Below, piece after piece: positions 46 through 59,305 of a DNA stretch of 64,000 bases. Each line of letters begins with the position of its first letter. Within the stretch, counting starts at the first letter, position 1. The stretch is taken from IMG/VR virus record IMGVR_UViG_3300037312_000757; one strand, written 5' to 3'. Position numbers and translations under genes: made by a program. Under the pieces are notes generated by a model, which saw only the letters and a list, made by a program, of their open reading frames with translations, made no database searches and was not told the DNA's origin. The DNA is from a virus (taxonomy: Duplodnaviria; Heunggongvirae; Uroviricota; Caudoviricetes).

Positions 46-396
46 TTATAGCCACCGCAGCTTAAACATCACTGCCAGTTTAGCATCTAAAATATGAAGG
101 TAATACCGAGATTCTGATATCGTTTTTGAGTATGGCAAAGCTGCCCAAGGTTGACCAGGCTTGCCACCCCATTCATGCTCAGGTATCGGGTTTTGCATAT
201 AGACGGTTTCGTATGTAATCGCCCAGTGTTCGCCACGATTTCTGATTTGTTGAGCATGCCCAGTCTCGATCAACTCAAAACTAGGAAGTCCAAGAATTTC
301 TGGTCCTATGTTTTCGTGCAACCAAGCGAATACTTCGTTATCTGAGTCCTTGACTAGCAGATATTTCCACATCAAGTCCGTGATGTTTATAACCAT
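46..396 (-). CDS. small 'FKLxW' C-terminal motif family protein
   Basis: 116-aa ORF; 'WLHENIG' core and terminal AVMFKLRWL shared with neighbours. Confidence 0.8.
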   Translation of the reverse strand: MVINITDLMWKYLLVKDSDNEVFAWLHENIGPEILGLPSFELIETGHAQQIRNRGEHWAITYETVYMQNPIPEHEWGGKPGQPWAALPYSKTISESRYYLHILDAKLAVMFKLRWL

Positions 397-623
397 ATAA
401 GCGAAAATCTCCGTTCGCTTTGTTCTTCAACGCATTCAAGGAAGAATCGTTCTTCACGTTCGTGAATGACCCACCCACGACCACACCAACGACCTTCGAC
501 TGGTGCTTCAGGTTTGCGTTTTCCACCGATTTGTTCGTAAAGCCAATTCACGCACATTGGAATTGACTGTGAGTTGCGACCATTAAGGTGCTTGGTGATA
601 ATTCTTGTAATTTCTATAGCCAT
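387..623 (-). CDS. small 'FKLxW' family protein
   Basis: WLYEQIG...GRGW...RFSLIWL; 10-bp overlap with next gene. Confidence 0.75.
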   Translation of the reverse strand: MAIEITRIITKHLNGRNSQSIPMCVNWLYEQIGGKRKPEAPVEGRWCGRGWVIHEREERFFLECVEEQSERRFSLIWL

Positions 624-853
624 TTCAATTTGAATGCCACTGCTAGTGTGTCATCATCAATATTTACATACCATGTATGACCACCTTGGGTGAATTCAAC
701 CTCGATAGTCCAACCCACACCAGAGTACGAAAACAGCATCTGGCCTGAGTCGTGTTGAGGACCAATATCCATCTTCAATGCAGTCAACAAAGCTTGCAGA
801 TCGCCTGCTGGATTTTCTGGTCCGATGTGAGACGTTACGTCAATCAGGGCCAT
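614..853 (-). CDS. small 'FKLxW' family protein
   Basis: GVGW...IDDDTLAVAFKLKWL. Confidence 0.8.
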   Translation of the reverse strand: MALIDVTSHIGPENPAGDLQALLTALKMDIGPQHDSGQMLFSYSGVGWTIEVEFTQGGHTWYVNIDDDTLAVAFKLKWL

Positions 854-1158
854 GTCAGCTTAAACATCACGGCCAATTCAGGGTCATCAATAGTGACGCA
901 CCACTGATAACTCGTTTCCATAGGCTTGTCTGACTCATTTGAGATCGCCATTTTGTTCAATGACCATCCTTCACCACAACGACCAATACCAACACCGTCA
1001 TAAATTGGATCGTAACCCTGCATCGCTCTGCTAACATTCGTTTCCAACCACTCAACCATCTCGTAATAGTTGTCGAACAGAATGTCGCTGAATGCAGGGT
1101 ATAAGTCAGGAGTATTTTTCTTGCTCAGATATTTCTGAACATTAATATAGTTCTTCAT
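844..1158 (-). CDS. small 'FKLxW' family protein
   Basis: EWLETNV...GEGW...IDDPELAVMFKLTWP. Confidence 0.8.
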   Translation of the reverse strand: MKNYINVQKYLSKKNTPDLYPAFSDILFDNYYEMVEWLETNVSRAMQGYDPIYDGVGIGRCGEGWSLNKMAISNESDKPMETSYQWCVTIDDPELAVMFKLTWP

Positions 1159-1439
1159 CCGCAGTGATCGCCATACTTGAGTTTATACATAACAGCATGG
1201 CTATCGTCATCGATCGTCAATGCGATACCGCTTCGATTTTCATCGTTAGACCGATTGATGTCAATACGCCAGCCATAACCATAATATGGCAAATAGCGGT
1301 TATTGTCAGATATTGTCCAACCAACATTATCGTCGAGCCAATCAATTACTTCGACGTAGATTGATGGCTGCGGAGCTTTGTTTATGATTGAGACGCTGTG
1401 GTAGTGCTCATACCACATTCTGGTGATGTTGAAGTCCAC
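1155..1439 (-). CDS. small 'FKLxW' family protein
   Basis: DWLDDNVG...GYGW...IDDDSHAVMYKLKY. Confidence 0.8.
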   Translation of the reverse strand: MDFNITRMWYEHYHSVSIINKAPQPSIYVEVIDWLDDNVGWTISDNNRYLPYYGYGWRIDINRSNDENRSGIALTIDDDSHAVMYKLKYGDHCG

Positions 1440-1440
1440 G

Positions 1441-1728
1441 TCATTGTTCTTTTATTGGGACGTCCGGCACAATCATTCTAAAGTGAACGGCATCTGCATC
1501 ATTCTCTAGATGCAAATAGCGTTTCATTGTTACATATCCATGTGAATCGGGTGGTGACATCACCCATTCAATCTCCCATCCATCCCCTTTTGCTGGAGAT
1601 GCCGGCCGTCCGCTTGGCAAGCGGCGTGTTGCTTGCGCTCCGGTTGTCGGATATGCTGGGCTTATGTGTGCTTGACACCATTCGCTGACAACTCTTGCGC
1701 TGATATTTGAGACGTCGAAAGTGACCAT
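1441..1728 (-). CDS. small 'FKLxW' family protein (divergent)
   Basis: EWCQAHI...GDGW...ENDADAVHFRM. Confidence 0.75.
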   Translation of the reverse strand: MVTFDVSNISARVVSEWCQAHISPAYPTTGAQATRRLPSGRPASPAKGDGWEIEWVMSPPDSHGYVTMKRYLHLENDADAVHFRMIVPDVPIKEQ

Positions 1729-1961
1729 ACTATTTTGAATTGTAGTTCGTCAAGTTCATTTTCGAACTCGAAGCAGAAGCGCAGACCACCACGGCCACGA
1801 ACGCGCTTCAGGCTGGCTAGCCAACCGTCACCGATATGAATTCCTCCGGCCATTTGCTTGATTGCGCCGATGTTCGACGCACACCAGTCAATCATCTGGT
1901 CGAAACGCAGCGGATCGGTCCCGTTTGCGTTGTCCATCACAAAGTCAGTCACATCGATCAT
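1662..1961 (-). CDS. small 'FKLxW' family protein
   Basis: Start at ATG 1961 after GGAGGT; DWCASNIG...GDGW...ELQFKIVW. Confidence 0.75.
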   Translation of the reverse strand: MIDVTDFVMDNANGTDPLRFDQMIDWCASNIGAIKQMAGGIHIGDGWLASLKRVRGRGGLRFCFEFENELDELQFKIVWSLSTSQISAQELSANGVKHT

Positions 1962-1980
1962 AATACCTCCGAAGATCATT

Positions 1981-2010
1981 CATTATAGCACAAATGAAGG
2001 ATCATTTGTA
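1981..2010 (-). promoter_or_regulatory. sigma70-like extended -10 promoter with upstream inverted repeat
   Basis: Minus strand TGCTATAAT preceded by ACAAATGA-n4-TCATTTGT. Confidence 0.5.
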
Positions 2011-2016
2011 GGAGAA

Positions 2017-2421
2017 TTACAGCCAGCGCAGCTTGAACATTGCGATGCCTTCCTTGTCGCGGAACTTGAGTGTCAAGGTATCGCGCATCAACGAATTATT
2101 GTTGAAATACGTGAGGTCGAGCCACTTTGCATGCCAGCGATATTTACCCGATGCGCCGCCTTCACCAAGTGTCTCACGGCACCATTCGACCTTCTCTGCA
2201 AAGTTTTCGACAATCACGTGCCATTCATTTCCAACTTGCCTGATTTTCATCAGTTGTTCTTCCCGAGCTTGTAGATCCAATTGGTGACGATATTGCTGAA
2301 GCCACGCCGAGGTCATCAAAGTAGACTTACCAGTATTTCTCGCTCCCCAAATGACAGCCTGTCCAGCAGGAATACCATTTTGCCAATTTGGTGGAATCCA
2401 TGCACCTGGGTTGTGACTCAT
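2017..2421 (-). CDS. small 'FKLxW' family protein
   Basis: EWCRETLG...IAMFKLRWL. Confidence 0.75.
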   Translation of the reverse strand: MSHNPGAWIPPNWQNGIPAGQAVIWGARNTGKSTLMTSAWLQQYRHQLDLQAREEQLMKIRQVGNEWHVIVENFAEKVEWCRETLGEGGASGKYRWHAKWLDLTYFNNNSLMRDTLTLKFRDKEGIAMFKLRWL

Positions 2422-2672
2422 AAAATGCTCATCTTGAATTGTACGGCTTCGTTGTCATCTGGTACCGACACGAAAAGTTGATACGTTCTGGATGATGACT
2501 TCACCACATGCAATACTCGGGCGGAGCTAATCGTTTGGAGGAATTCATCAAATTCTTCACGCTCACTGCTATCAACTTCTAGCAGAAAGTTGTAGCCGAT
2601 CCTGAAACCATGCCGCATCCAGAATTCACCCTGGTCGACATGTTTACTCCATTGTAATTTAATACCTTTCAT
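2418..2672 (-). CDS. small 'FKLxW'-like family protein
   Basis: DDNEAVQFKMSIL; ATGA overlap. Confidence 0.65.
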   Translation of the reverse strand: MKGIKLQWSKHVDQGEFWMRHGFRIGYNFLLEVDSSEREEFDEFLQTISSARVLHVVKSSSRTYQLFVSVPDDNEAVQFKMSIL

Positions 2673-2742
2673 GATTCTTATGGTGAAATGGCAAGGGGTT
2701 TACCTTGCCATTTTACTACGACTATGATCTCACACAACGATA

Positions 2743-2934
2743 TTATGGCTTTTTCTTGCCATACATGTTGTTCATCAAACGCTTCGCCCAGGCTTCTGGG
2801 TCTTCATCCGTGCTCTTCTCGCGCGCTTCCAGTGCTTCCTTAGCAAGACGTCGCGTTTCCTCGCTCATCGGTACAGGTTTCCCTGACCTGAAACGCTCTA
2901 ATGCTTCGCCAAACTTCAACTTCGTTGGTTTCAT
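2743..2934 (-). CDS. hypothetical protein
   Basis: 63-aa ORF, ATGA overlap with upstream gene. Confidence 0.6.
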   Translation of the reverse strand: MKPTKLKFGEALERFRSGKPVPMSEETRRLAKEALEAREKSTDEDPEAWAKRLMNNMYGKKKP

Positions 2935-3224
2935 TTGGCCAAAGCTTCGGATGCGATCTCGACAATTTCATCGGCATCACCCAGGGCAGTCTTTTCTGTT
3001 GATGCGGATGAGATGCGCAGGATGTCAACCAGTGCCTTCTTGAGGCCTGGTACTTGACGCTCGAGGAACTCTTTGCCAGCTGCACCTTCGATCGCATGAG
3101 CGATCAGTTCGACGAAATCATTGTACTTGATGTAGTCGCCGTTCTCATCCATGTACAGGCCCTTGTTGCCATCATCGTCGACCTGACCGAGGGTGTATCG
3201 TTGCGGAGTAATCATGTAAGCCAT
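2931..3224 (-). CDS. hypothetical protein
   Basis: 97-aa ORF in tightly packed operon. Confidence 0.65.
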   Translation of the reverse strand: MAYMITPQRYTLGQVDDDGNKGLYMDENGDYIKYNDFVELIAHAIEGAAGKEFLERQVPGLKKALVDILRISSASTEKTALGDADEIVEIASEALAK

Positions 3225-3802: not shown

Positions 3803-3985
3803 TGATCTTTCTCCGGGATGGATTTCTTTTTGATGCCGCGGATACTTGATCTGTAATCATGTGATAGCAGCGATCACATGAATTTATCATCAAAGTGGTG
3901 AATGATACCTTGCTTTGCTGAGGAAGCGACGTTTGTCACAGAAGCTTGGTGTGCCTGTGTCTGCCATCAAGATCACAATCGAGGC

Positions 3986-4171
3986 TCAAAGCAGCCCGAA
4001 TCCGTGAGTAGCTAGTATGCAGAAAATCAGGATCAAGAGGCCGATGTTGAAGGGGACGGCTGGTACATATCGTGTCGTGTAATAGATTAGCGCCGAACAC
4101 GTGATAATGCCAGCCGCAAAGCATGCAAGGCCGAAGAGAAGAGTTGTTTGCAGATATGGGGAGACGAACAT
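3986..4171 (-). CDS. small membrane protein
   Basis: Two hydrophobic segments. Confidence 0.55.
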   Translation of the reverse strand: MFVSPYLQTTLLFGLACFAAGIITCSALIYYTTRYVPAVPFNIGLLILIFCILATHGFGLL

Positions 4172-4172
4172 C

Positions 4173-4406: not shown

Positions 4407-4467
4407 TCGGGGCTCCTTACTATCTAACGAGCCTACCTATTATAGCGGAACGCTAAGGTGAATGCGG

Positions 4468-4788
4468 TTAGGGTCGATTTAGATAAGTCACGATCGCCAC
4501 AAGAACGTCTTCAGCTTTCGGATCTTTGAGTGTGCTGAGTATGCGACAGGAAGCTGTTAAAAGAGCCTTGGCGCTGTTTACGTGCTCTTTTAGATGCGGG
4601 TAGTCAGTTGCCCCTGCCAGGTGCAGGAAGGCGCTCTGATCAAGTTTGGCAGGCATTCCTCGAAGTAGGTTAGCATGCAAGTTAGTTGGATCTTCGAGTT
4701 TACGCCATTCATATAGCTCTTTGTCTCTTGCTACGAGAAGCATGCACAGTTCTTCTTTTGACAACTCGGGGTAATCAATATCAGACAT
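4468..4788 (-). CDS. hypothetical protein
   Basis: 106-aa ORF coupled to upstream gene. Confidence 0.65.
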   Translation of the reverse strand: MSDIDYPELSKEELCMLLVARDKELYEWRKLEDPTNLHANLLRGMPAKLDQSAFLHLAGATDYPHLKEHVNSAKALLTASCRILSTLKDPKAEDVLVAIVTYLNRP

Positions 4789-5269
4789 GAACGGCCTCTA
4801 CGATAGGAGTCACTTCTGTATTCGTTACGTTGATTGTACACGTAAACGTCTCTGCGAGCTCATCTTCTTCAATAGGCAACCATGGTCTGCGATGACACAG
4901 CGTGAGTGTACTGGTGCCCGGTTGACCGGCCCAGAAACGCCACAGAACATGACCTCCGCCACCGACAAGCAATTCGCCCTTGTCAGTGTGCGTCCTGATT
5001 GGAGTGTGTTCGGGATCTTTCATCTGCATCAGAATTGATGCATTGTTTTCAGCTAGTTCCCACAAAAAGCCCGTGCTAGGGTTGTCTGGGAGAGTGAGAA
5101 GAATACCGGAGTCGACCGGTACGGTGATCGTCATGTTGTTCTGCTCTGCACCCAGCATGAAGTGCGTGCAGTCTTTGTGCAAACAGCGTCTTACTTTCTT
5201 CTTCTTCATACAGCCTAGAAAGTAACAAAGAATGGTAAATGCAATCACATAAAGTGGTAGGAATGACAT
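4781..5269 (-). CDS. chagasin/ICP (inhibitor I42) family cysteine-protease inhibitor with N-terminal TM anchor
   Basis: Three I42 loops in order: NPSTGFLW, VGGGG, RRPW; N-terminal hydrophobic helix followed by KKKKVRR. Confidence 0.75.
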   Translation of the reverse strand: MSFLPLYVIAFTILCYFLGCMKKKKVRRCLHKDCTHFMLGAEQNNMTITVPVDSGILLTLPDNPSTGFLWELAENNASILMQMKDPEHTPIRTHTDKGELLVGGGGHVLWRFWAGQPGTSTLTLCHRRPWLPIEEDELAETFTCTINVTNTEVTPIVEAVHV

Positions 5270-5631: not shown

Positions 5632-5907
5632 TTACGCGAACGTAAGGTGGAACTCGATGGCGGCTGCGTGGGACTTGAAGCAGAATTCGACGATCGCATC
5701 AAAACTTGGATCATCAAAACAGGTCAAGCGAACAAAAGCTTCGTTTTTCCCCATGAAAATGATGCCTCGCTGGTGATATACGTCGTTGTCATATCGTTCT
5801 TCTAGCCAGCGGATCTCATCGTCAAACATCATGAAGGAATTGAACGGTGAAGTCGTTTGGACCACGTACCATTCACCGTCCCGATCGAAGTGAAAAGCGT
5901 TACTCAT
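5632..5907 (-). CDS. small 'FKLxW'-like family protein
   Basis: RWLEE...FCFKSHAAAIEFHLTF. Confidence 0.65.
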   Translation of the reverse strand: MSNAFHFDRDGEWYVVQTTSPFNSFMMFDDEIRWLEERYDNDVYHQRGIIFMGKNEAFVRLTCFDDPSFDAIVEFCFKSHAAAIEFHLTFA

Positions 5908-6649: not shown

Positions 6650-7170
6650 CCAGGTTCACGGAGTGCTATATCAGGACTAATGGTCTGAACCCGTCGTCCG
6701 TCTTTGACGTACATAGCACCAGGCGCTCCTGTAATTTCACACGTTCGTGCTGACATGCTTGCTGCCATGTTAATAGCACCTATGCAAAATTCATCTACAG
6801 AAAATGTTGGATAGACTGTCAATGTGCCGAACTTTTCTTTGATAGTACCGAACTCAGGATACCTTGGCTCAGTCCTCATTTCCTTGAAATTCTTGAAATC
6901 ATTAAATTCAAGGACACGACGTTCAAGCACATTTGACACATTTGAAAAATCAAGTGTCACACAAGCATTGCGACCAGCTAACCAATACTCGTAACTGCTT
7001 TGCACGTAATCAGCATGGCGTTGGATGGCTTCACACATTGAATCAATGATGTTATACCATCCGTCACCGCATGCGATACCCGAATAGAACAAACTAGAAT
7101 TCCGATTGTCCTTCTGCACGAACAGCTTTGGATATCGTGCGTACAGCTGATTCTCCAGATATTCTTTCAT
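6628..7170 (-). CDS. conserved phage hypothetical protein
   Basis: CGDGW...IKEKFGTL...TCEITG motifs typical of a widespread phage family. Confidence 0.75.
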   Translation of the reverse strand: MKEYLENQLYARYPKLFVQKDNRNSSLFYSGIACGDGWYNIIDSMCEAIQRHADYVQSSYEYWLAGRNACVTLDFSNVSNVLERRVLEFNDFKNFKEMRTEPRYPEFGTIKEKFGTLTVYPTFSVDEFCIGAINMAASMSARTCEITGAPGAMYVKDGRRVQTISPDIALREPGWVRYKE

Positions 7171-8063
7171 CGGTACTTCGTCACGAGTCGTTCCAGTTCA
7201 GCAACCAACTTGTCAGCCTTATTGGGCTCAGCTACTGCATTACTGAGGTTGCCGTAATGCTCTTCCAAGCAATTGACAAGCAAGTTCTTCAATGCGTCTT
7301 CGTCTGGGGTGTGGCGCAAAGTGCTTGACACATACAGTCCTTCAAGCTGTCGATGCTTGTCTTCAGCCCACTGATCTAGCTGCGCAAGTGTCCACTCACC
7401 ACGACGAATAGCCTTCAGCTGTTCGCGATTCTGTTCGATGTTGAGGTCACCAGTCATCAAGATCTGTTCGCACTCATCAAGCAGACGCACAACGTGGTAA
7501 GCAAATTTCACGTCAAAGCCGTATGCTTCAATAGAAGCGGCCCGCTTCTCATTCTGAGCATTGGTCTTGTTCTTGATCTTGCTCATCTGAGCATATGCGT
7601 AACCCTTAAACTTGTGCCAGCAACCTTTGTGCAAGAATTCCTTACGTGCATCACGCACCATTTCGCCGATCTTGGTCGAATGCACAACGCAACGACGTGG
7701 TGTGAAGATGCTGTCGATCATGTTCGGGTTGTTTTCCATCAGCAACTGGAAATACTTCACAATGTTGTAGATCGTGATGTCGTATTCTCGACTTGTTTCC
7801 TTGTCGATGATGTGGTGATGCTGATATTGTTCGAATCCTGGTGGCAAATTCTTACCGAAGCCTGGCACATAACCAGCCAAATGCGGGAAGATCATTGTCT
7901 TCGGTGGGATGCAGAAGCCATAAACGTCACGATCGCTGTCGTCATTGCTAACACCATACGATTCCGATCCCATGATCGTTTCATACATGGTGTTGCTGAC
8001 TACAAATTGCGGGGCGTCGCTCAGAAGGTCTTTCTTGCGGAGGGTTTGTACGATGCTTGACAT
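7167..8063 (-). CDS. RlaP/YcgL-like Pol-beta nucleotidyltransferase
   Basis: GSESYG-x5-SDRD motif, NPNMID, KFAYHVVRLL, LKAIRRG. Confidence 0.85.
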   Translation of the reverse strand: MSSIVQTLRKKDLLSDAPQFVVSNTMYETIMGSESYGVSNDDSDRDVYGFCIPPKTMIFPHLAGYVPGFGKNLPPGFEQYQHHHIIDKETSREYDITIYNIVKYFQLLMENNPNMIDSIFTPRRCVVHSTKIGEMVRDARKEFLHKGCWHKFKGYAYAQMSKIKNKTNAQNEKRAASIEAYGFDVKFAYHVVRLLDECEQILMTGDLNIEQNREQLKAIRRGEWTLAQLDQWAEDKHRQLEGLYVSSTLRHTPDEDALKNLLVNCLEEHYGNLSNAVAEPNKADKLVAELERLVTKYR

Positions 8064-13342: not shown

Positions 13343-13693
13343 TTAAATTCCGTTCCAAGTAAGTTTAAAGAGTACCGCATCGACATGTGATTCGAAAATC
13401 ACACCAACTGTATAAGAGCAACCAGATTCCCACCCTACGTGGTCGTATTTGCTCGTACAGTTGTCAATACACCATTGTTTCATATCAGCCATTGATCCAT
13501 ATGTGAAATCATAACACTTCACCAGAAACCAATTAGCTGGATATTTCTTACGCACTTCTGCGATGGCGTATGAGTCTTCCCATTCATCTTCACCAACGAA
13601 GTCGTCGAAATCAAGTTCGTCGTTCTTCGTTTCCACTTCTACTTCTTTCTTTCCCAACAAATTTTTCAATGCTTGAAACATTGGTGTCTCCAT
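13343..13693 (-). CDS. small 'FKLxW' family protein
   Basis: QWCIDNC...FESHVDAVLFKLTW. Confidence 0.75.
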   Translation of the reverse strand: METPMFQALKNLLGKKEVEVETKNDELDFDDFVGEDEWEDSYAIAEVRKKYPANWFLVKCYDFTYGSMADMKQWCIDNCTSKYDHVGWESGCSYTVGVIFESHVDAVLFKLTWNGI

Positions 13694-14453: not shown

Positions 14454-15392
14454 TCACTTTGTTGCGTCGAGGTAACGAACGGCATCCAATGCAGCTTGAC
14501 AACCTGATCCAGCACTTGTGATGGCTTGACTATACACTGGGTCGGCAACGTCACCGCAAGCAAACACACCAGCTTTGCCGGTTCCTGTTTGGAACGTCAG
14601 ACCCTTTGTAGTCTTGATGAAGCCATAGTCATCAAGCATCAGCTGATCTTTGAACAGATCAGTATTTGGCTTGTGACCGATTGCAATAAACACGCCCGGT
14701 AGCCGGATTGATGTCAATGCTTGGCCGTTTGTGATGCTGATGGAATGCACACCGTTGTCATCACCATGTACTTCACGTAATGTAGAGTTCAGATGCAGCA
14801 CAATCTTGCCTTCATTGACCTTTTCCATCAAGTGATCGATCATGACTTGCTCAGCCTTGAATGTGTCACGACGATGGATCAAATGCACCTTGCTTGCGAT
14901 GTTGGACAGATACAGAGCTTCTTCAACCGCAGTGTTACCGCCACCAACTACCGCAACTTCCTGACCTTCATAGAAAAAGCCGTCACATGTTGCACAGCCT
15001 GATACACCACGTCCAAGGAATTCTTGCTCTGATGGCAGACCCAAATACTTAGCTGAAGCACCAGTCGCGATGATCAGCGAATCGCAAGTGTATGTGTCAC
15101 CAGTTTCTGTTGTCAGGGTGTATGGCTTGGTGTTGAGGTCAACGTTATTGACATAATCAATCACTACATTTGCACCAAAGCGAGTAGCGTGATCCTCGAG
15201 ACGTTGCATGAGGTCTGGGCCCATGATGCCTGTGACGTCGCCTGGCCAATTGTCAACTGTGGTGGTGGTCATCAGCTGGCCACCTTTGTCGAAGCCAGTG
15301 ATAACCGTTGGCTTCAAGCCTGCTCGTGCAGCGTAAAGGGCAGCGGTCCAACCAGCCGGGCCACTACCGAGAATAATGAGTTTTGAATGCAT
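14454..15392 (-). CDS. trxB: thioredoxin reductase
   Basis: GSGPAG, CATCDG, GGGNTA, HRR, GD motifs. Confidence 0.95.
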
Positions 15393-17894: not shown

Positions 17895-18383
17895 TTACTT
17901 CTGTGCGTTGTTGTCTAGAATGCGGTTGATCATTCCACTTTCCCACGCTTGTCGATATCGACAGTCCTCGGCGTGATACGAAACGTCCGGTGTTTTCGTC
18001 ATACACGAACACAGCGGAAAGTCTTGTAAGGCAGCTTGCATTTCTGCAAGCTTATTGGCCTCAATCTCTTCATGAATCTGTGCAGCATGTGCAGCACGCG
18101 CAGCAAGAGACCGTTCACAAACTTCGCGGAGTCGTTCAGTGTCATTTTTGCTGAGCATAACCGTATCCCAGTGACCGTACTTTGAAGTATATCCAAATAC
18201 GTACTTGACTGCAACCCAGATTCGCTTAAACACATTGTGATACTGGTTGAGATACGCGCTCAGGTACAATTCACCTTCTTCTGTATCGAACGTAAACTTG
18301 AACGTATGTTCATCACTACCACAATCGCAGTCGAAGTGATGTTTTTCAAATCCTTCCCACATATTATCCCCTTTTACAGCCAA
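17895..18383 (-). CDS. conserved phage hypothetical protein
   Basis: CDCGSDEH...RIWVAVKYVFG; C-terminal CxC...H...C. Confidence 0.7.
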   Translation of the reverse strand: MAVKGDNMWEGFEKHHFDCDCGSDEHTFKFTFDTEEGELYLSAYLNQYHNVFKRIWVAVKYVFGYTSKYGHWDTVMLSKNDTERLREVCERSLAARAAHAAQIHEEIEANKLAEMQAALQDFPLCSCMTKTPDVSYHAEDCRYRQAWESGMINRILDNNAQK

Positions 18384-18634
18384 CGCAACTTGAACACCAT
18401 TGCGTCAGCTTCTTCTTTTATATGAACAGTGACAATTGGGTCGCCACCATTGAAGCGGTTGATTGCTTCGTATTCACCTGTCATCGTCTCTTTCATCCAC
18501 TCGATAACAGCATAACGTTCGTCGTGAGTGCCATACACCCAGCAATGCCAACCTACGATGTCTTCTTCGAATCGTTTTTCAGATCCGAACGGGAAGGACC
18601 ACCCGTCATGATATTGCCAATAATCAACTCGCAT
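18374..18634 (-). CDS. small 'FKLxW' family protein
   Basis: EWMKETM...RFNGGDP...DAMVFKLRWL. Confidence 0.8.
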   Translation of the reverse strand: MRVDYWQYHDGWSFPFGSEKRFEEDIVGWHCWVYGTHDERYAVIEWMKETMTGEYEAINRFNGGDPIVTVHIKEEADAMVFKLRWL

Positions 18635-19556
18635 TTGCTGCCTCAAACAATTCAACATAGTCTACATCTGGTGTTTGGATCTCACCCCAGTGGTCGATTG
18701 CAAATTCACGGAACCATCCTGACGTCAAGTTCGTGCAAATACGCATCAATGCGCGACCATATGCTTTTAACGGATCAGTTTCCTTACCAGGAATCACGTA
18801 GCGCTCAAGTGCGATAACCATCGCTTCTTCACGAACAGTTCTCAGCTTGTTTTCGTGAGACTGTCGTTCAAACAGTTGCTTGTCGATCCACGCTTTTGAT
18901 GGATCGTTCTTCAGAACCTGGTACATTGGCGTATCGTGATACTTCACGATATCATGCAAGTCATCGTGTTCGTAGACTCGTTTCAATGCACGCTCACTCT
19001 TTGCGAAAAACTGTGCATTAGACTGATTTAAGCGTGCCTCGAATCGTTTGCCAAACTTTGCTTCATTCTCTGCTAGGCGGGCGTTGAAGAAGTCGACATG
19101 TTCACGAAGAAAATTTCCACAATACGGCTTCATGTACGTCAAGTCAGAAATCGTCTTTTGCCAGTGAACTTGCCAATAGACATGGCTACGTTTCATCAAG
19201 TACAGGTACTCAATTGGCGGAACATGGCCAGTCGTGTCGACTGGCACGCCGTCGTCAATGCACAGCGTGATATGCATCGGTGTGAATGTATCGCGCATAT
19301 CCCACAACATCTGAGAACTTGGGTTCACTTCGGCAATTTCAAGCTCAACCCGACGCCCACACTTCAACAGACACTTGAACTTCCACGGTGACGTGGGAAT
19401 CATGTACTCGATGTACTTTTGGTTTCTTGTGGCCCAGTCATGTATCTGAGTCAACGAACCAATCATGTCGAGATCATTAGCAGTTCTTAATGCTTGCCGT
19501 CCCTGAAGTCTATTCAAATGATTCAAGCCATATGAGCCAACCACAATCATTGTCAT
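18624..19556 (-). CDS. conserved large-phage protein, possible nucleotidyltransferase fold
   Basis: VVGS...DLD, K.SH, HDDLH, EE.MV.ALER, GWFR. Confidence 0.75.
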   Translation of the reverse strand: MTMIVVGSYGLNHLNRLQGRQALRTANDLDMIGSLTQIHDWATRNQKYIEYMIPTSPWKFKCLLKCGRRVELEIAEVNPSSQMLWDMRDTFTPMHITLCIDDGVPVDTTGHVPPIEYLYLMKRSHVYWQVHWQKTISDLTYMKPYCGNFLREHVDFFNARLAENEAKFGKRFEARLNQSNAQFFAKSERALKRVYEHDDLHDIVKYHDTPMYQVLKNDPSKAWIDKQLFERQSHENKLRTVREEAMVIALERYVIPGKETDPLKAYGRALMRICTNLTSGWFREFAIDHWGEIQTPDVDYVELFEAANAS

Positions 19557-33247: not shown

Positions 33248-34252
33248 TTACAGTGCCAAATTAGGAATCTCCTTACCAATCTCAACCAACCGCTCACAAA
33301 ACAACTTCCAAATCAAATCCTTCTCCTCATACAACTCAGGATTCCCCAAAATACACGCTCTGACACTCTCATACGTCTCCAACGCCTCAGGACAAATACC
33401 CTCACCAAACAACTGTCTGGCAATGAATACTGGGTCGGTAGACGTCTTGGTGATCAACTCATCCTCAGAATATGCATCGATCTCATCCGGGTAACGAGCC
33501 ATAAAGAATCTCGGAAAGAAATCACCCACAAATTCATCAACATTCTGAGCAGTAACAGGGATCATCTTCTTGACATATCCCTTACCATCCTTCCGCTTAG
33601 GAGCAAATCGCCCACCATGAACCAAACCCTTATCATGATTCAAGGTGTACCCCAATCTCCCAACCATCTCCCCAGGATTATACTCATGATCCGATTCCAA
33701 TACCATGGTCCAATCAGATAACGCCTTCGCCACAGCCTTGATCAACTCAGTTCTATGGCTACCCGAATAACGACTGGTACCAGGAAAAGGGCTCCAATGA
33801 GTAAACTCCAATAACTCAACCTCACCCAACATATAATCAACTTGGTGCCATCCACTACCAGGAACTAATACTCGAGTATAAACCTGATTGATAGATGGAT
33901 TGATCTTCACATTATCACTACCATATCTCTCCATAAGGAAAGATACTAGAGAGTCATACGTCCAGTCAGAAGACGATACCGCTATGTCTACATCACCACT
34001 CAGGTCCTTCTTACCAGTAGACCCCAATGTCCTCAAACCATTCTTCACGAATAATTCATGGAGGTTGTAGAACATGTCGCCGTTATCACTGGCTCTATCA
34101 GATGTTTGTGTCAAACCCAGGTAGAACTCTTCAAATTTGGCGGGGTCATATTCCTGGTCCCGGAGCTCGAACAGAGTCAGAACCCAGGCACAGATACGGA
34201 TGCTGGTATGGCGTGGAACATCAACAACGTTGTCAAATGCTTTTCCGCCCAT
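33248..34252 (-). CDS. Pol-beta-type nucleotidyltransferase
   Basis: MGG.AF start, LGSTGKK..SGDVDIAV, QVDYM. Confidence 0.75.
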   Translation of the reverse strand: MGGKAFDNVVDVPRHTSIRICAWVLTLFELRDQEYDPAKFEEFYLGLTQTSDRASDNGDMFYNLHELFVKNGLRTLGSTGKKDLSGDVDIAVSSSDWTYDSLVSFLMERYGSDNVKINPSINQVYTRVLVPGSGWHQVDYMLGEVELLEFTHWSPFPGTSRYSGSHRTELIKAVAKALSDWTMVLESDHEYNPGEMVGRLGYTLNHDKGLVHGGRFAPKRKDGKGYVKKMIPVTAQNVDEFVGDFFPRFFMARYPDEIDAYSEDELITKTSTDPVFIARQLFGEGICPEALETYESVRACILGNPELYEEKDLIWKLFCERLVEIGKEIPNLAL

Positions 34253-34709
34253 GGTGGGCTCCTTTATTTTCTTTTGGCTTGGGTACGTATGGCTTCATCT
34301 CGGGTCTCTGCTCAGGCCCAAGATGATACAACACATTCGTTGCATCAGGATGATCCACACCCAAACGAGCAGCCACAGCTATTGCTTCGCTTGAGAAGCC
34401 AATAGTGATGCCATATGTTTTACGTCGATCTACTCCAATCACAAAGTCATTTGGTGAGATCAACTCTTTGTATTTGTTGTAGATCTTCCTGATCTCTGCT
34501 CTGAGACCACTGCCATTGTGCCATCTGAGCTTGTCACGCTCAGGCTTGTAATACAGCACGGTAACATGAGGCCAAGTGTAGGCGATTTCCGCTCCCATGT
34601 CGGGGCCATACGTTTTTGAACGCCAATCATTTCCTACAAGTTCTTTATAACGTTTGTCTCGCCATTCACGTAGAGGCTTAGTATCCGCCGCCGGTGACTG
34701 TGTGTCCAT
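34233..34709 (-). CDS. 'WP...IGF' paralog
   Basis: WPHV...IGFSSEAIAVAARL. Confidence 0.65.
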   Translation of the reverse strand: MDTQSPAADTKPLREWRDKRYKELVGNDWRSKTYGPDMGAEIAYTWPHVTVLYYKPERDKLRWHNGSGLRAEIRKIYNKYKELISPNDFVIGVDRRKTYGITIGFSSEAIAVAARLGVDHPDATNVLYHLGPEQRPEMKPYVPKPKENKGAHHGRKSI

Positions 34710-35064
34710 CTGCCAATTCCAAATTAAAACGCATTGCTATTGCATCCGACATATCAGTGAAACCAAATACGATTACTCGTTCATGAAAATCGAACGAACA
34801 CGCCAAGATATAGTTTCCTGGGCCACCCATGTATGCTTCGACCTGTTGGCAATAGCTATTGATCATGGCATACATCGTATCACGTCTATTAATACGTTTT
34901 GTGACATTCACGATGATGTGTGGCCAGAACCGTGGAATCAGAACCGTATAGGGAATACGCTCATCAGGATCAACCACACTTAGTTCGAGCAAACGATACC
35001 AATCTCTGATCGTGTTATACCCCTTGACCACTTCACCAGCCATATGTGACCTTGTAGAAATCAT
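34678..35064 (-). CDS. 'WP...IGF' paralog
   Basis: WPHI...FGFTDMSDAIAMRF. Confidence 0.65.
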   Translation of the reverse strand: MISTRSHMAGEVVKGYNTIRDWYRLLELSVVDPDERIPYTVLIPRFWPHIIVNVTKRINRRDTMYAMINSYCQQVEAYMGGPGNYILACSFDFHERVIVFGFTDMSDAIAMRFNLELADGHTVTGGGY

Positions 35065-35386
35065 CTTTTATTTGAATTTGAAGCTTTGCGGCGACCGCAG
35101 TAGCGATGTTCTGGAAGCCTATGACCAATTCCTTTCGATAGGCTACCACCACAAAGTCTTGTACATCTATGATTTGCGCCAGCACGCGATGAACACCCCG
35201 GGCCCAGGTTGCGTTTTCGGCCATCGTATAACTTTCAAAGTTCTCCGGGGCGGTAACGCTGATGTATGGCCATTTTGCCTTCACGTCATCACAGAAATTG
35301 TGCAAGTGAGGACGATCAAACGAGTCTCTCAGGGCTTCAGCCCAGATACGGATGCATTCTTGTTCGTTATTTGTAAGAGTCTGCAA
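35033..35386 (-). CDS. 'WP...IGF' paralog
   Basis: WPYI...IGFQNIATAVAAKL. Confidence 0.65.
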   Translation of the reverse strand: MQTLTNNEQECIRIWAEALRDSFDRPHLHNFCDDVKAKWPYISVTAPENFESYTMAENATWARGVHRVLAQIIDVQDFVVVAYRKELVIGFQNIATAVAAKLQIQIKDDFYKVTYGW

Positions 35387-35687
35387 TTACATCACCAATC
35401 GTTAGTTTGAATGCCACCGCATCCGCATCAGTCGAGAATCCAATTAGAAGCACATCGTCGGGTATCACCCACCTGGTATACCAATCCCAACCGCCACAAA
35501 TGTTCTGAAGATGGCTGAAAATAGCTTGCTGTTGTTCATCATCAATGAGGTAGTCGCCAATGTCGTCTGCTTTAATGTAGACGTGGGGCCACTTTTCTAT
35601 TTCTTCTGTTGTTGGAACAGTTTCTTGATCGAAAGCCCAGCGGAGAATTGGGGGTTTATTTGAGTTCGAAATCGCTGTCATTTTCAA
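35367..35687 (-). CDS. 'WP...IGF' paralog
   Basis: WPHV...IGFSTDADAVAFKL. Confidence 0.7.
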   Translation of the reverse strand: MKMTAISNSNKPPILRWAFDQETVPTTEEIEKWPHVYIKADDIGDYLIDDEQQQAIFSHLQNICGGWDWYTRWVIPDDVLLIGFSTDADAVAFKLTIGDVIADSYK

Positions 35688-35991
35688 TGTAATTTTCAGC
35701 CGCAGCTTTTTCTTGTTCGTTGTTGAAAAAGAAGATCATGAGGTCAGCTCTGACCATTAGTACCAGCGGGTAATATGACGATATGCCAGCTTCCTTCTTG
35801 ATCTGCTTGTTCAGCTTGAAGATGCGTCGCTGAAGCACGCCAGGGCTCATTGGGCCCTTCTTATCGCGCACATAGCGATATGGCCAGCGTTTTTGTGCTT
35901 CGTAGATCGCATCGTCTATCGATCTGAGCTTTAATTGATCGTTGATCCAATCACTTACTTTCATCTGGCATACCGTTCTTTGCGATGTCAT
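35656..35991 (-). CDS. 'WP...IGF' paralog (divergent)
   Basis: WPYR...FFFNNEQEKAAA. Confidence 0.55.
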   Translation of the reverse strand: MTSQRTVCQMKVSDWINDQLKLRSIDDAIYEAQKRWPYRYVRDKKGPMSPGVLQRRIFKLNKQIKKEAGISSYYPLVLMVRADLMIFFFNNEQEKAAAENYIENDSDFELK

Positions 35992-43870: not shown

Positions 43871-44113
43871 TTAGTAAGCCCAGGTGAGCTTAAACATCAG
43901 GGCTTCTAATTCATCATTAAATGCAAAGGCAATGCTGGTGGGGAGTTCTAGTCCCGACAAAACCTGCAAATTCCACTCAGTGCAGTTCGCACAACACCAA
44001 GAATAAATCACCGCAAGTTCTTTTAGAGTATTGACTCGTGTAAGTACCACTCTATGCTTCAACGACGCAAAGGGCGGAAGCTTGGGGAATGGTATCACAC
44101 ATAAATCGCTCAT
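43871..44113 (-). CDS. small 'FKLxW' family protein
   Basis: SWCCANC...FAFNDELEALMFKLTW. Confidence 0.75.
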   Translation of the reverse strand: MSDLCVIPFPKLPPFASLKHRVVLTRVNTLKELAVIYSWCCANCTEWNLQVLSGLELPTSIAFAFNDELEALMFKLTWAY

Positions 44114-44571
44114 GACCAGAGCAATTTGAATGCAACGGCAATAGTAGGATTGTCAAAGGAAAAGTGGATACTGACGTCATGAACAGAATGTGGTTCAATA
44201 GTCAGAGACCATTTACCACCATTCTCTTCACACATATCAGCGCACCATTCGGCCTGCTTTTGCACGACAGCGTTAAAGGTAGCGAATTCCATGCAAGCAT
44301 AAACTGGCAATGGCTTTCGTATATCGAGGCGAACAGATGCTTGAAGTTCAAGAGAGTCTTGAACGTAGTTGACGAAGCGACCAAGGTTTAGTCGCTTCTC
44401 GTGATCATAAAGGGGAAAAAGACGTAGCGTGTACAACACTTCGTTGCCACGCATGACTTCAGAACAAACCCACGGCTGACGATAGCCATCTGGAATGACA
44501 CAAATTTGTGTTGTCACGCTCTTTAATCTTTCGTCATTCGCTACCACTGCTTTCCAACGCCTGTTCGACAA
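44110..44571 (-). CDS. 'FKLxW' family protein
   Basis: EWCADMC...FSFDNPTIAVAFKLLW. Confidence 0.75.
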   Translation of the reverse strand: MSNRRWKAVVANDERLKSVTTQICVIPDGYRQPWVCSEVMRGNEVLYTLRLFPLYDHEKRLNLGRFVNYVQDSLELQASVRLDIRKPLPVYACMEFATFNAVVQKQAEWCADMCEENGGKWSLTIEPHSVHDVSIHFSFDNPTIAVAFKLLWS

Positions 44572-45121
44572 TGAGATTCATCTGAACGACTAATGTCACA
44601 GCATAAGCCACGGCATGGGCGCGCTTGAAATGGTACGCACCATCAGTTGGCGGCACCCAAATTTCCTGATCAATCTCGGTTCTACTTTTATTTAGTAGGT
44701 GACGTTTACCAGGACGAATCAATGCCAAACATACAGCCAAGTCCATAACACTTCGGGGCTTGATTGTATCAACAATGTCAAAGTGGCCACGAACGTGTGC
44801 CAGCATATCGACAAAATCTGGTGTGCAAAGCAGATCCCAAACAGGCTCGCGCGAGCGAAGCTCTTCGAGATGTTCACCATCACGCACACCACTGTAAATG
44901 GTGTTGTTCAAGAAGTCTAGCTTGATGTAACCAAGCTTTTCAGCTTCTTGATAAGGAATACTAGCCAGCTCAGTAAACGGATTGATGGGAATGTTCTGAA
45001 AATATACGCCACTGTTATGGCGTACAAATTCACCATTCTTTTCAATAGCAGCCGGAATATGAGCAAGCTGTGCCAATGCGAGATCCCGATTGGCAAAGTC
45101 CATGTCAATGTCCGTGCTCAT
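44534..45121 (-). CDS. miniature DNA polymerase III alpha (DnaE)-like protein
   Basis: DIDMDF, HNSGV, KLDFL, ALIRPG, FKRAHAVAYA in 195 aa. Confidence 0.85.
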   Translation of the reverse strand: MSTDIDMDFANRDLALAQLAHIPAAIEKNGEFVRHNSGVYFQNIPINPFTELASIPYQEAEKLGYIKLDFLNNTIYSGVRDGEHLEELRSREPVWDLLCTPDFVDMLAHVRGHFDIVDTIKPRSVMDLAVCLALIRPGKRHLLNKSRTEIDQEIWVPPTDGAYHFKRAHAVAYAVTLVVQMNLIVEQALESSGSE

Positions 45122-50958: not shown

Positions 50959-51333
50959 CTATCGCGGTGGTTCTGGCTTGGCGATGATTCGATAGAACAG
51001 CGTAGGATACATGAGCTTCAACTGAATCGCAGTTTCTTCATCAACTTCTAGCCACTGGCCGTACCATTTATGGTCAGGCCGTTCACCCTCGTAGAGTGCA
51101 AGACCGTCCATCCAAACGATGTTACCGTAGCCTTCTTCCAATCGCCATTTGGCGGCAAACATTGGAATTCTGAGCTTATTGCCGGCTGGGTAACCAAGCG
51201 TGTCGTTTAACCAGCCTAGCATATCTGTCTGCTCTTCTGTGAGATTGAGCACCAAATCATTCGCATCGTAGCGAAATGTAGCCATGCCGTAGTACCGTGG
51301 TACGCTATTGATCTTTACTTCTAGTCGATACAT
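50959..51333 (-). CDS. 'FKLxW'-like family protein
   Basis: GWLNDTLG...DEETAIQLKLMYP. Confidence 0.65.
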   Translation of the reverse strand: MYRLEVKINSVPRYYGMATFRYDANDLVLNLTEEQTDMLGWLNDTLGYPAGNKLRIPMFAAKWRLEEGYGNIVWMDGLALYEGERPDHKWYGQWLEVDEETAIQLKLMYPTLFYRIIAKPEPPR

Positions 51334-51598
51334 GTGGAAATCTCAAACGGTATTCAACTGCTAGTGGTGTATCAAAGATGTGCAGAGTGTGCTCTCTGAT
51401 TGACCACACGTCACTGTAGACGGTGAATGTATGTTGGTCGTATGACACTTTTGTTGCTTGTTCAACTAACCAATCGAAAGCTTCTTGCACTGGACGAGAG
51501 GGGCAGTAATGTCGCCATGGTGGATCTTCACCTTGTCTGTACATTAGATGCCAGTCATCTCCAAAGTAGAAAGTGTACATGATTGTGAAGAAAGCCAT
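51305..51598 (-). CDS. 'FKLxW'-like family protein
   Basis: DWLVEQ...DTPLAVEYRLRFP. Confidence 0.6.
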   Translation of the reverse strand: MAFFTIMYTFYFGDDWHLMYRQGEDPPWRHYCPSRPVQEAFDWLVEQATKVSYDQHTFTVYSDVWSIREHTLHIFDTPLAVEYRLRFPHVSTRSKDQ

Positions 51599-51630: not shown

Positions 51631-52098
51631 TTAAATTGATGCGTCTTCAATACCTGCAACACGCAGCTTCGTAATGTTACCAAGCTGGAAGTGCAAGTAT
51701 TCCAAACCCTTCATAATCGCAAGGAACTTGTTACGCGTGAGCGCAACCTGGTTAATGAGCAGTGCAAGGTCAAGCACCTTTGGATCAGCATCAGCATACT
51801 TGTCAGCGTCACGACTGGTTAGTTGTCGTGCATACTTCTCCATGTAGAACTGATAACGCTCACCCTTAATTTTGCGCAACTGAATGTTCAAATATTCAAG
51901 GATTGCTTCAAGCTCTTGCAATTGTGCAAAACGATATGCTGACCAACCAGGAATCAGTTTTGCAATGTGTTCGATCTTACCCTTTGTTTTCACCTCGGCG
52001 AGTGCGTCTGCGTGCTCTTGTTCATAGTGCAACAAACATTCGACGAGGGGTGTTAGATCTTCGGGATCCGCAGTAATGCGGCCATACCACCCGCTCAT
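51631..52098 (-). CDS. uvsY: recombination mediator UvsY-like
   Basis: QLQELEAILEYL...FQLGNITKLRVAG; next to uvsX. Confidence 0.75.
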   Translation of the reverse strand: MSGWYGRITADPEDLTPLVECLLHYEQEHADALAEVKTKGKIEHIAKLIPGWSAYRFAQLQELEAILEYLNIQLRKIKGERYQFYMEKYARQLTSRDADKYADADPKVLDLALLINQVALTRNKFLAIMKGLEYLHFQLGNITKLRVAGIEDASI

Positions 52099-54669: not shown

Positions 54670-54810
54670 GACGCCGCAAAATGTTTTTGCGCCGACATTT
54701 TTATTTATCTTCCTGGTTTCTTTCTAGAACACTAGAAATCAATAAAATGGCACATGGTGCATTTCTACACCATGTGCCATGTTACGCTTACCTACGCTGG
54801 TGTGTCAAAA

Positions 54811-57300: not shown

Positions 57301-57337
57301 TGGTTATCCGATTGGGTTAATAACTAGACTTATTTAT

Positions 57338-58921
57338 TTAGATGATTACTGGCATTGGCATGATGTTCATTGCATCTTCCGGATCGATTGTTTCCTTCAG
57401 ATCTTCATGATCGATGCCCTGAGCCCACATCATAACCGTTTCAAGCATACGCACTACTAACAAAGTAGCAGAAACCAAGTCGTCATGTTCGCCCAACTTG
57501 GCAGCATAGCTTGGGCCTGAGCTAACAAACATTTTGAGTTCCTTGACAAGCTCTCGGCTCCAGACGCGCATACGTCCACTTTCAATCAAACTCTTCATTT
57601 TGCCGCACGCAGCCAACTTCTTACGGTTATCAGTGTTCAAACCTTTACGGAATCGACGGGTTGCACCCGCTTTGCGAGGTTCACTAATAAAGATACCAGG
57701 GAAATTTTGCTCGCCAGTATCATCAATGATTTGCAAGACGGTCTCACCGATTGTGTTGTTCTCAACAGTCCAGAACAATTGTGGATCGCCATCTTGATTT
57801 GGATCTTCACGCAGTGTCTGATGGAGAATCAAAAGAATCTGCATGAGGATACGAACTTGTCCGGCAGCCGGGGTTTGGTTATGCTTCCACTCGGCCACCT
57901 GTACCATCTCAGGATACTGGAAAACCTGAATTGCCGCAAAATCCCCACCAGTTCCCAAAGAGGGATCCAATGCAACCATGTATGCTTTGTTTGCTTCTGG
58001 CTCTTGGAACCAACGCACTTGACCAGTGTAATGCTCTGGTTCCTTTGACTTCATAGTAGCCAGAACCATTGGAGCGATCAATGTTTCATCGTCTGAAACG
58101 AATTCACATTCAAATTCCTGGCGGAACTTAGCTTCGCCCAAGCTCAAACGGAATGGTGCCGCCCATGCTTCGTCTCGTTCCGGATGAGCGTCCCACTTAA
58201 CCAAGATCGGTTTAAAGCCGTTAACACCAAGACCGCCTTCGATTGGATTACCATATTCGTCGGTATTGTCGTTAGCACCCTTCCAGATTTGAGCAAATTG
58301 GTCTTCGTCTGACTTTGGGGTTGATGTGATAATGCAGCTACCACCGGTTGACAGTGTAGGTTGAATAGCGGTCCAGAATTCCTGCGCCATTGTTGGTCGT
58401 ACGAATGCGAACTCGTCTAGGTACAGCAGAGTAATAGAAAGACCACGACCAGCATCTGGTGTTGTTGCACGAGCAATAATTCGTGAGCCGTTGTCAAATG
58501 TAATCGTACCCTTGTTGTATTCAGTTACACCAGCACGGATGAAGTTCGGACATTCTTCGTATGAATAACGGATACGATCCATAATTTCCATCGCAGCAGA
58601 AAATTTGTTTGCGGCGATCAGAATCTTGGTATCCGGACGGAACATTGCCAACCAGAGCAGATATGCACCAGCGGTCGTTGTTTTACCCATCTGGCGAGCA
58701 GTAAGGCCAACTACGAAGCGATTTTCAGCAAATGCTTCGATCATTTCCTTCTGGTAGTCATACAGATTGAAGTTGATAGAACCCTTCTTAGGGTGCTGAA
58801 TCTTCACAAATGTTTCTGTGAAGTAAACAGGATCGTCAATGCAGCGCATCAGCATTGCCAACTGTTCTTTGTTATAGGAGTCCTTGGTGTGACTCTTCTT
58901 AATGATTTCTATATTAGCCAT
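57338..58921 (-). CDS. terL: terminase large subunit (T4 gp17-like)
   Basis: YDYQ, ARQMGKTT, YLDEFAF, TSTP, FRQEFEC, ALDPS.G.GGD, HDDLV. Confidence 0.95.
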   Translation of the reverse strand: MANIEIIKKSHTKDSYNKEQLAMLMRCIDDPVYFTETFVKIQHPKKGSINFNLYDYQKEMIEAFAENRFVVGLTARQMGKTTTAGAYLLWLAMFRPDTKILIAANKFSAAMEIMDRIRYSYEECPNFIRAGVTEYNKGTITFDNGSRIIARATTPDAGRGLSITLLYLDEFAFVRPTMAQEFWTAIQPTLSTGGSCIITSTPKSDEDQFAQIWKGANDNTDEYGNPIEGGLGVNGFKPILVKWDAHPERDEAWAAPFRLSLGEAKFRQEFECEFVSDDETLIAPMVLATMKSKEPEHYTGQVRWFQEPEANKAYMVALDPSLGTGGDFAAIQVFQYPEMVQVAEWKHNQTPAAGQVRILMQILLILHQTLREDPNQDGDPQLFWTVENNTIGETVLQIIDDTGEQNFPGIFISEPRKAGATRRFRKGLNTDNRKKLAACGKMKSLIESGRMRVWSRELVKELKMFVSSGPSYAAKLGEHDDLVSATLLVVRMLETVMMWAQGIDHEDLKETIDPEDAMNIMPMPVII

Positions 58922-58924
58922 GTA

Positions 58925-59305
58925 TTACCACGCAAGTTTGAATACAAGGGCATCCATAAGCTTTTCAAAATGGAACGTGAAGATCATCTTCTTGTAGTAC
59001 ATCTTGTTGGCTTTGTTGGTCTCGAAACGTGCTTCATAAAACCAGAGACCCGTACTGTGGGTATCAAACCATTCCTGAACGTCAAGCGGCAACATACCAC
59101 TCAATTCAATGTTGGTACCCTTCTCACTGTCCTCCCACAAAAGTTTATCTTCGAACGAGTAAGGCGGCATGGTCTTATCAACGTTCACGATAAAGCCTTC
59201 GTCATCGGCTTCCCATGAAGAGAAGTCGACGCCACGACGCTCCATTGGCGTCATGGTGTTAAGGCATCCTTTTATCCTTGGATGAGAATCGAACAATACG
59301 TGCAT
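58925..59305 (-). CDS. 'FKLxW' family protein
   Basis: EWFDTHSTG.W...FHFEKLMDALVFKLAW. Confidence 0.75.
   Translation of the reverse strand: MHVLFDSHPRIKGCLNTMTPMERRGVDFSSWEADDEGFIVNVDKTMPPYSFEDKLLWEDSEKGTNIELSGMLPLDVQEWFDTHSTGLWFYEARFETNKANKMYYKKMIFTFHFEKLMDALVFKLAW

Follow-up and report, generated by a model that had tools for sequence, protein, structure and literature searches.

A lineage-specific family of about 92 small, highly diverged alpha/beta proteins in a 524-kb soil phage

The DNA analysed here, a stretch of 64,000 nucleotides (hereafter the window; IMG/VR record IMGVR_UViG_3300037312_000757), is the reverse strand of bases 136,518-200,517 in the 523,836-bp genome of an uncultured soil phage, with 47% G+C, and contains part of a real, lineage-specific multigene family with about 92 intact, highly diverged genes. 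IMG/VR classes the genome as a complete virus with direct terminal repeats. An initial annotation of the window had described an expansion of small proteins ending in A-x-x-F-K-L-x-W, and this expansion was recovered throughout the genome. For this, a profile hidden Markov model (HMM) was seeded with the 14 window open reading frames (ORFs) ending in the motif and iterated on all genome ORFs of at least 40 amino acids (aa), where 92 ORFs were retained at convergence (E < 0.01), 79 of them at E < 1e-5; 17 of the 92 are in the window. The same HMM gave no match, even at E <= 10, in either a reversed or a shuffled ORF set, and an independent six-frame search with an alignment of the family (A1) returned 95 genome matches. 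The motif was also more frequent than expected by chance: the regular expression A[VILM].[FYLC][KR][LMI].[WFY] matched 13 times in the six-frame translation of the window, compared with a mean of 0.56 and a maximum of 2 in 100 shuffles, and 11 of these 13 sites lay on the minus (coding) strand, which carries nearly all window genes.

The family proteins are 70-160 aa long, and their 92 genes comprise 31.6 kb of DNA (6.0% of the genome). In a crude gene call of ~840 genes they account for about 11%, or approximately one gene in nine. Six or so arrays and a dozen single genes make up the 92 copies, the HMM placing arrays at genome positions ~41-45 kb, 197-206 kb, 213-219 kb (on the opposite strand), 312-327 kb, 362-377 kb and 459-475 kb. 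The array at 197-206 kb contains 26 members (197,846-205,790) with a few unrelated small ORFs between them, and its promoter-proximal end reaches into the window, where the run extends past the window edge. The nine tandem, mostly overlapping minus-strand genes at this end (46-396, 387-623, 614-853, 844-1158, 1155-1439, 1441-1728, 1662-1979, 2017-2421 and 2418-2672), which the initial annotation had already grouped together, are all members (HMM E-values from 7e-7 to 2e-18). Across the genome, 57 of the 92 family genes overlap the gene upstream, 22 of them by the 4-nt ATGA arrangement, and the arrays are split up by short hairpin terminators. The same DNA is present in two rhizosphere metagenome runs from two studies, and the array is identical in both, without informative variation.

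Column counts of the family alignment agree with the shared motifs that had been described for the window copies. Helix 1 carries W-L-x-x-N-V/I-G (W in 70/75 sequences), a hairpin carries G-x-G-W (W in 69/79), and the last strand reads h-x-[FI], followed by D (63/91) and D/E. In the last helix, A-V-x-F-K-L-x-W, the A is found in 78 of 92 sequences, followed by V/L/I, any residue, F (67/92), K (71/92, with R in 12 more), L (88/92), any residue and finally W/F/Y. Every conserved column contains a full mixture of synonymous codons (six for Leu, four for Ala), which places the constraint on the protein, and a DNA-level repeat as the cause of the motif was rejected on these grounds. The family profile has neither a conserved Cys or His column nor an invariant polar constellation, the conserved set consisting of W, L, A, F, one D and one K/R only; the lack of such a constellation argues against an enzyme. 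Conserved hydrophobic residues together with one Asp and one Lys point to a scaffold core rather than a catalytic site, and the shared motifs would mainly represent the hydrophobic core of this scaffold. Compared with other small ORFs, the family proteins are more acidic (median charge of -4.3 versus -1.4 per 100 aa) and richer in Trp (3.2% versus 1.4%). At ten gene junctions, the longest-ORF start of the next family gene overlaps the codon of the conserved terminal Trp (N-TGG, five being a true A-TGG), and at ten further junctions it lies 5 nt after the first base of that codon; these counts, which cover window 387-1740 and genome 198.5-205.5 kb, tie the ends and starts of family genes to the conserved motif.

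Structure prediction supports one two-layer alpha/beta fold for the family, of the predicted order beta1-alpha1-beta2-beta3-beta4-alpha2. The AlphaFold2 model of the 79-aa protein encoded at 614-853, for which an 87-sequence alignment was used, reached a predicted local distance difference test (pLDDT) of 92.9 and a predicted template-modelling score (pTM) of 0.79 and comprises beta1 (residues 2-5), alpha1 (15-29), beta2-beta4 (42-65) and alpha2 (68-78). The AlphaFold model of a 116-aa member of a long subtype that occupies the arrays at 369-376 and 459-470 kb has a pLDDT of 90.0 and shows the same core with an extra beta-alpha unit after helix 1. Both models were built from the family alignment and are not independent of the sequence relationship. 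The single small alpha/beta fold that had been anticipated from the window is supported by these two models, and the variable surfaces are supported by a paralogue identity of only ~20% and by a connector of very different lengths between helix 1 and the sheet.

No convincing relative of this fold has been described in Pfam, PHROG or PDB sequences or by structure. Among 87 members, Pfam searches detected no family, only three sporadic single matches to unrelated families, and no match to the SUKH / SMI1-KNR4 clan; PHROG searches of the same 87 members likewise found no family. A profile search of PDB sequences gave no convincing relative, AcrIIC5 alone appearing at E=2.2, and the ESM Atlas returned viral hypothetical clusters only. 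The only good matches in BFVD were three uncharacterised proteins of uncultured Caudovirales (A0A6J5KSM5, A0A6J7WNC3 and A0A6J7WGT2, with TM-scores of 0.79, 0.67 and 0.67); these and the proteins AUZ95037.1 and AUZ95014.1 of phage Atu_ph07 are members or close relatives of the family, all annotated as hypothetical only. Foldseek searches of the PDB with both models were without a match at E <= 0.001, and no known inhibitor rose above background with either model in Foldseek or VIA-align. A VIA-align scan of 48,161 chains ranked the MoaD-related C-terminal domain 1v8c first (best Z 6.1 and 6.7), followed at Z ~5-6 by KA1 domains, the AMPK alpha C-terminal domain (CTD), the METTL16 VCR and appendage platforms; by the aligner's own calibration, Z ~5-6.7 is the range of common arrangements. 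The KA1-like modules among these (SAD-B/Chk1 KA1, AMPK alpha CTD, METTL16 VCR and the adaptin appendage platform) are non-catalytic binding modules with the same beta-alpha-beta-beta-beta-alpha order, on which 72-73 of 79 residues can be superposed (Z 5.0-6.0, root-mean-square deviation 2.7-3.2 A), the KA1 superpositions aligning 73 residues at Z 5.2 (5iri) and 5.0 (5wi2), within the background range of the aligner. They differ from the family in that there is no sequence similarity (Pfam PF02149 was not matched) and in that lipid-binding KA1 domains are basic whereas the family is acidic.

Our preferred reading, which we put forward tentatively and at slightly less than an even chance, is that the family could constitute a diversified repertoire of binding proteins, with one target per paralogue. 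The small, acidic, Trp-rich and non-enzymatic scaffold would keep its hydrophobic core, leaving the connector after helix 1 and the exposed faces free to vary, and each paralogue, retained as a gene in its own right, would bind its own target among host or competitor proteins. The proteins would be intracellular and non-virion, and their binding would serve host takeover or counter-defence. In line with this, the nearest structural look-alikes are protein-interaction platforms (KA1, appendage), at Z 5-6.7 only. Since matches to known families and fused domains were both lacking, an anti-defence or adaptor role is something that we can only infer.

The docking helix proposed in the initial annotation would be another arrangement, in which an invariant C-terminal helix would dock one common hub, such as a protease of the host, a chaperone or a hub protein of the phage, and the variable faces would capture different clients, by possible analogy with the F-box/PRANC-type adaptor expansions of large eukaryotic viruses. 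Six of the eight motif positions in this helix are identity-conserved, including the Lys (K or R in 83/92), compared with only ~5 of 15 positions in helix 1, and 59 of the 92 proteins end 2-5 residues after the invariant Leu, which makes the helix end and the free C-terminus a fixed feature. We nevertheless consider such docking unlikely: in both models the helix is predicted with high confidence and is integral to the fold, its conserved residues are hydrophobics of the core type (A, V, F, L, W), several intact members replace F-K (AVALAL, AVEFAL, AVQCRL), and no candidate hub was identified. Less likely still is a full combinatorial adaptor system, in which the helix A-h-x-F-K-L-x-W would plug ~90 recognition modules into a single hub and thereby redirect or destroy dozens of host proteins; if true, it would be the bacterial-virus counterpart of the poxvirus F-box/PRANC adaptor expansions, on a fold without described relatives.

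The history of the copies was traced by comparison with the closest relative, the uncultured genome G001 (68% complete, terminase large subunit (TerL) identity 89%), with which the main array is collinear gene for gene. A few members are without a one-to-one partner in G001, indicating some turnover. Family orthologues in the two genomes had a median aa identity of 46% and a proportion of nonsynonymous differences (pN) of 0.35, compared with 57% and 0.26 for adjacent non-family genes; the orthologues are thus in the same order in the relative, yet diverging faster than neighbour genes. In all 22 pairs, pN was lower than the corresponding synonymous value (pS), synonymous sites being saturated (pS ~0.8). 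The paralogue tree was star-like and unresolved, with a median terminal branch of 1.58 substitutions per site and without near-identical pairs, and paralogues clustered faintly by array (50 label changes versus a shuffled mean of 57.2). Deep terminal branches, the lack of near-identical pairs and synteny indicate that the expansion is old and that the copies are individually maintained, and the separate maintenance of each copy suggests many separate jobs rather than redundancy. These data bear on a neutral "gene accordion", in which copies would have spread by unequal recombination at shared gene ends and headful packaging in a large capsid would tolerate the extra DNA, an idea discussed for large capsids (PMC5646251). 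The head-to-tail packing with its frequent overlaps, the similar gene ends and the few members without a one-to-one partner between the two genomes would fit such a process. We regard it as quite improbable, since all 92 genes are intact and retain the fold motifs, near-identical recent copies are lacking, order and content are conserved relative to a synonymous-saturated relative with pN<pS in 22/22 pairs, and the mixture of codons shows that it is the protein, and not a repeated DNA sequence, that is under selection.

Judged by profile matches, the family is confined to the clade of Atu_ph07 and Phosso, phages of 0.4-0.6 Mb, with 3 to 49 or more matches per relative. Sinorhizobium phage Phosso and Agrobacterium phage Atu_ph07 are cultured members of this clade. 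As the profile was trained on the 523,836-bp phage, all counts per genome are lower bounds: 49 matches were found in G001, 37 in Phosso (469 kb, TerL identity 59.6%), 35 in G004 (415 kb, 62%), 25 in G005 (608 kb, 63%), 23 in G003 (297 kb, 68%), 21 each in G002 (425 kb, 69%) and G007 (480 kb, 60%), nine in G006 (578 kb, 62%), and three each in Atu_ph07 (490 kb, 57%) and G010 (354 kb, 52%), and none were found in four incomplete contigs of 120-220 kb (TerL identity 53-55%). The family was kept in every complete relative searched, comprising five uncultured genomes, Phosso and Atu_ph07. In Phosso, the profile matches at 2.5-14.5 kb, near the start of the record, belong to a series of short genes annotated as "hypothetical protein", with tRNA genes interspersed among them. 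A search of 1.84 billion representatives with the profile returned 611 clusters at E <= 0.001; the best 150 of the 611 are short proteins, most with the same ending, and 18 are from the 523,836-bp phage itself. The ten that were looked up are metagenome proteins without a name, contigs of 290 and 524 kb being among those that encode them, and all outside matches with a recorded origin were viral or metagenomic and likewise unnamed. Searches with single sequences were empty: tblastn with one member against 50,697 phage records gave no match even at E <= 1, and megablast of 6 kb gave none, so that relatives are visible to profiles only. A near-homologue protein search returned only the genome's own proteins. 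Fused (longer) forms were not found among the homologous proteins searched, which is weak as evidence.

The timing of expression and the protein content of a related virion bear on whether the family could serve in the virion or its assembly, for example as decoration proteins, as internal head proteins or as chaperones. The T4-type late motif ATAAATA occurs at 132 sites in the genome, 84 of them in the 9% that is non-coding (~15-20-fold enrichment upstream), typically 20-45 nt before the start codon of ~70 genes, many of them structural; an example in the window is at ~59,340 (genome 141,178). No ATAAATA-like motif was present close upstream of the array start in the three largest arrays. The virion mass-spectrometry table of Atu_ph07 (Table S5, PMC6102473) lists many proteins of 9-15 kDa. 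By accession order, the Atu_ph07 members AUZ95037.1 and AUZ95014.1 correspond to gp258 and ~gp235. The anchor of this mapping is gp257, since the 148-aa gene beside AUZ95037.1 agrees with the mass of 16.73 kDa given for it; neither member is in the virion table, and the neighbour gp257 is (PMC6102473). Some single genes do lie beside terL and ORFs with the PHROG annotation "virion structural protein", and the copy adjacent to terL has a weak late-promoter-like motif. With two Atu_ph07 members missing from a virion proteome that includes many proteins of 9-15 kDa, between 3 and 92 copies in phages that share one set of virion genes, and the three largest arrays lacking a close late motif, we think a virion role highly improbable.

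Other sequence words were noted during the promoter analysis. Sigma-70-like promoters of the form TTGACT-N17-TA(t/c)cAT are located outside the window at genome 315-330, 416-417, 449-451 and 475-479 kb, and one of them heads an operon with the family gene 318,512-318,784. The palindrome GTTCATATGAAC often lies between the hexamers of these promoters and is a candidate operator site for a repressor or activator encoded by the phage. The word GTTGCCA belongs to hairpins.

Several points weigh against a repertoire of binding proteins for host takeover or counter-defence. The identity conservation of the last helix exceeds the usual need of a core helix. Because synonymous sites are saturated, statements on selection are limited to pN<pS. 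A late motif is present within the 459-470 kb array, the copy adjacent to terL may be late, and neither the ATAAATA nor the TTGACT-N17-TAtcAT promoter class could be tied to the arrays. The absence from the virion concerns two proteins of a distant relative and depends on our own mapping of gp numbers. An array of immunity proteins or inhibitors, with paralogues that would each counteract their own toxin or nuclease (either an abortive-infection effector of the host or a polymorphic toxin of a competitor), perhaps in analogy to bacterial poly-immunity loci, was also considered. The proteins are small, acidic, non-enzymatic, tandem and fast-evolving, the array is preceded at a distance of ~2 kb by the gene for a chagasin-type peptidase inhibitor, and the nuclease inhibitor NuiA appeared weakly in both Foldseek lists (E 1.0 and 0.13). 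As no Pfam immunity family was matched and the structural matches are not significant, we assign this explanation a low probability, and it is a special case of the proposed binding repertoire more than a distinct mechanism. The neighbouring inhibitor gene itself (4781-5269, minus strand, 162 aa) encodes a protein whose hydrophobic N-terminal segment is accompanied by a peptidase inhibitor I42 domain of the chagasin family (Pfam E=2.5e-15), and this product looks like a membrane-anchored cysteine-protease inhibitor.

Large eukaryotic DNA viruses have comparable multigene families, namely the MGF110/360/505 families of African swine fever virus and the ankyrin-PRANC and Bcl-2-like families of poxviruses, each with many diverged paralogues on a common scaffold that are arranged in arrays, show rapid turnover and, where studied, manipulate the host. 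Folds and hosts are unrelated to those of the phage family. Among bacterial viruses, tandem expansion in jumbo phages is already on record: Bacillus phage G has a zinc-ribbon family of ~35 copies that was called unprecedented (Iyer et al. 2021, PMC7824862), and arrays of >30 similar genes have been described in phage G and coliphage 121Q (Hua et al. 2017, PMC5646251). As in those phages, a single small domain is present in tens of copies, mostly in tandem, in a myovirus with a very large genome. Unlike the phage G zinc ribbon, the present family has no Cys/His metal site and ~92 rather than ~35 copies, and its copies are extremely diverged, whereas those of phage G and 121Q are "very similar"; it also belongs to another clade, the relatives of Atu_ph07 and Phosso. 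The present family stands apart by its fold, clade, copy number and extreme divergence. In the main texts of the papers on the cultured relatives Atu_ph07 and AP-J-162, the terms "paralogue" and "gene family" do not occur, and "duplicat-" is found in a cited reference only. The family is one of the largest gene-family expansions in a bacterial virus known to us, and about one gene in nine of a 524-kb phage coding for a single undescribed fold is an extreme case. If the proposed role in host takeover or counter-defence is true, the family would amount to a natural collection of binders, ready for use and all built on the same small, stable scaffold, and would offer a route to new host targets in rhizosphere bacteria. 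Phosso, with its 37 profile matches, and Atu_ph07, with three, are both cultured and make the family testable.

Besides the nine tandem genes, the window contains single and paired copies on the minus strand, most of which had been listed in the initial annotation. Confirmed single genes are 13343-13693 (116 aa, ending in ...AVLFKLTWNGI; HMM E=8.6e-12), 18374-18658 (94 aa, ending in ...AMVFKLRWL; E=8.3e-9), which is flanked by an ORF with the PHROG annotation "virion structural protein" and an ORF of unknown function, and 58925-59305 (126 aa, ending in ...ALVFKLAW; E=1.2e-5). Two adjacent genes at 43871-44113 and 44110-44571 (E=1.5e-8 and 1.5e-9) lie directly downstream of the gene for a 195-aa DNA-polymerase fragment (44534-45121, matching phrog_11778) and have orthologues at the same place in G001. 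A second pair at 50959-51333 and 51305-51598 (E=1.1e-5 and 2.2e-7) is directly downstream of the UvsY-like gene 51631-52098 (phrog_231, E=1e-15). The gene 58925-59305 is immediately upstream of terL (57338-58921), as is its orthologue in G001, and is preceded by a hairpin terminator and the weak late-promoter-like sequence TTAAATA. Copies therefore do adjoin terL, uvsY and a polymerase gene, as had been noted from the window. The small Atu_ph07 virion protein gp111, encoded upstream of terL, was rejected as an orthologue of 58925-59305.

Two of the listed loci fared less well. The minus-strand ORF 5632-5907 was rejected as a family copy (HMM E=10; hhalign probability 20% over 17 columns). In the five-gene minus-strand array at 34233-35991 (34233-34709, 34678-35064, 35033-35386, 35367-35687 and 35656-35991; alignment A2), only 35367-35687 (106 aa, ...AVAFKLTIGD) was significant (HMM E=2.1e-5), the other four ORFs giving E-values from 0.24 to 190. 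The five ORFs resemble each other (common W-P-H/Y and I-G-F...A-x-A), and the four non-significant ones share with the family only the C-terminal strand-plus-helix pattern. Comparison of A1 with A2, which includes the true member 35367-35687, gave an hhalign probability of 79% over the C-terminal 19 columns only. On this sequence evidence, the array is probably a divergent subfamily, the membership of four of its five ORFs being putative.

A few further features of the window were recorded. The family member 2017-2421 has an N-terminal extension of ~60 aa with a Walker-A-like G-A-R-N-T-G-K-S-T and weak DUF815/AAA matches (E=5e-4); the extension is too short for an ATPase and may be the remnant of a gene fusion. 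Between the array at the window start and the ribonucleotide reductase genes, two other minus-strand genes encode an RlaP-type nucleotidyltransferase (7167-8063; RNA repair pathway, pol-beta family) and a thioredoxin-reductase-like flavoprotein (14454-15392). At 10.5-15 kb of the window, low-depth contigs of one rhizosphere run match parts of the sequence at ~85-90% identity with rearranged joints, indicating a second, related phage in the same sample.

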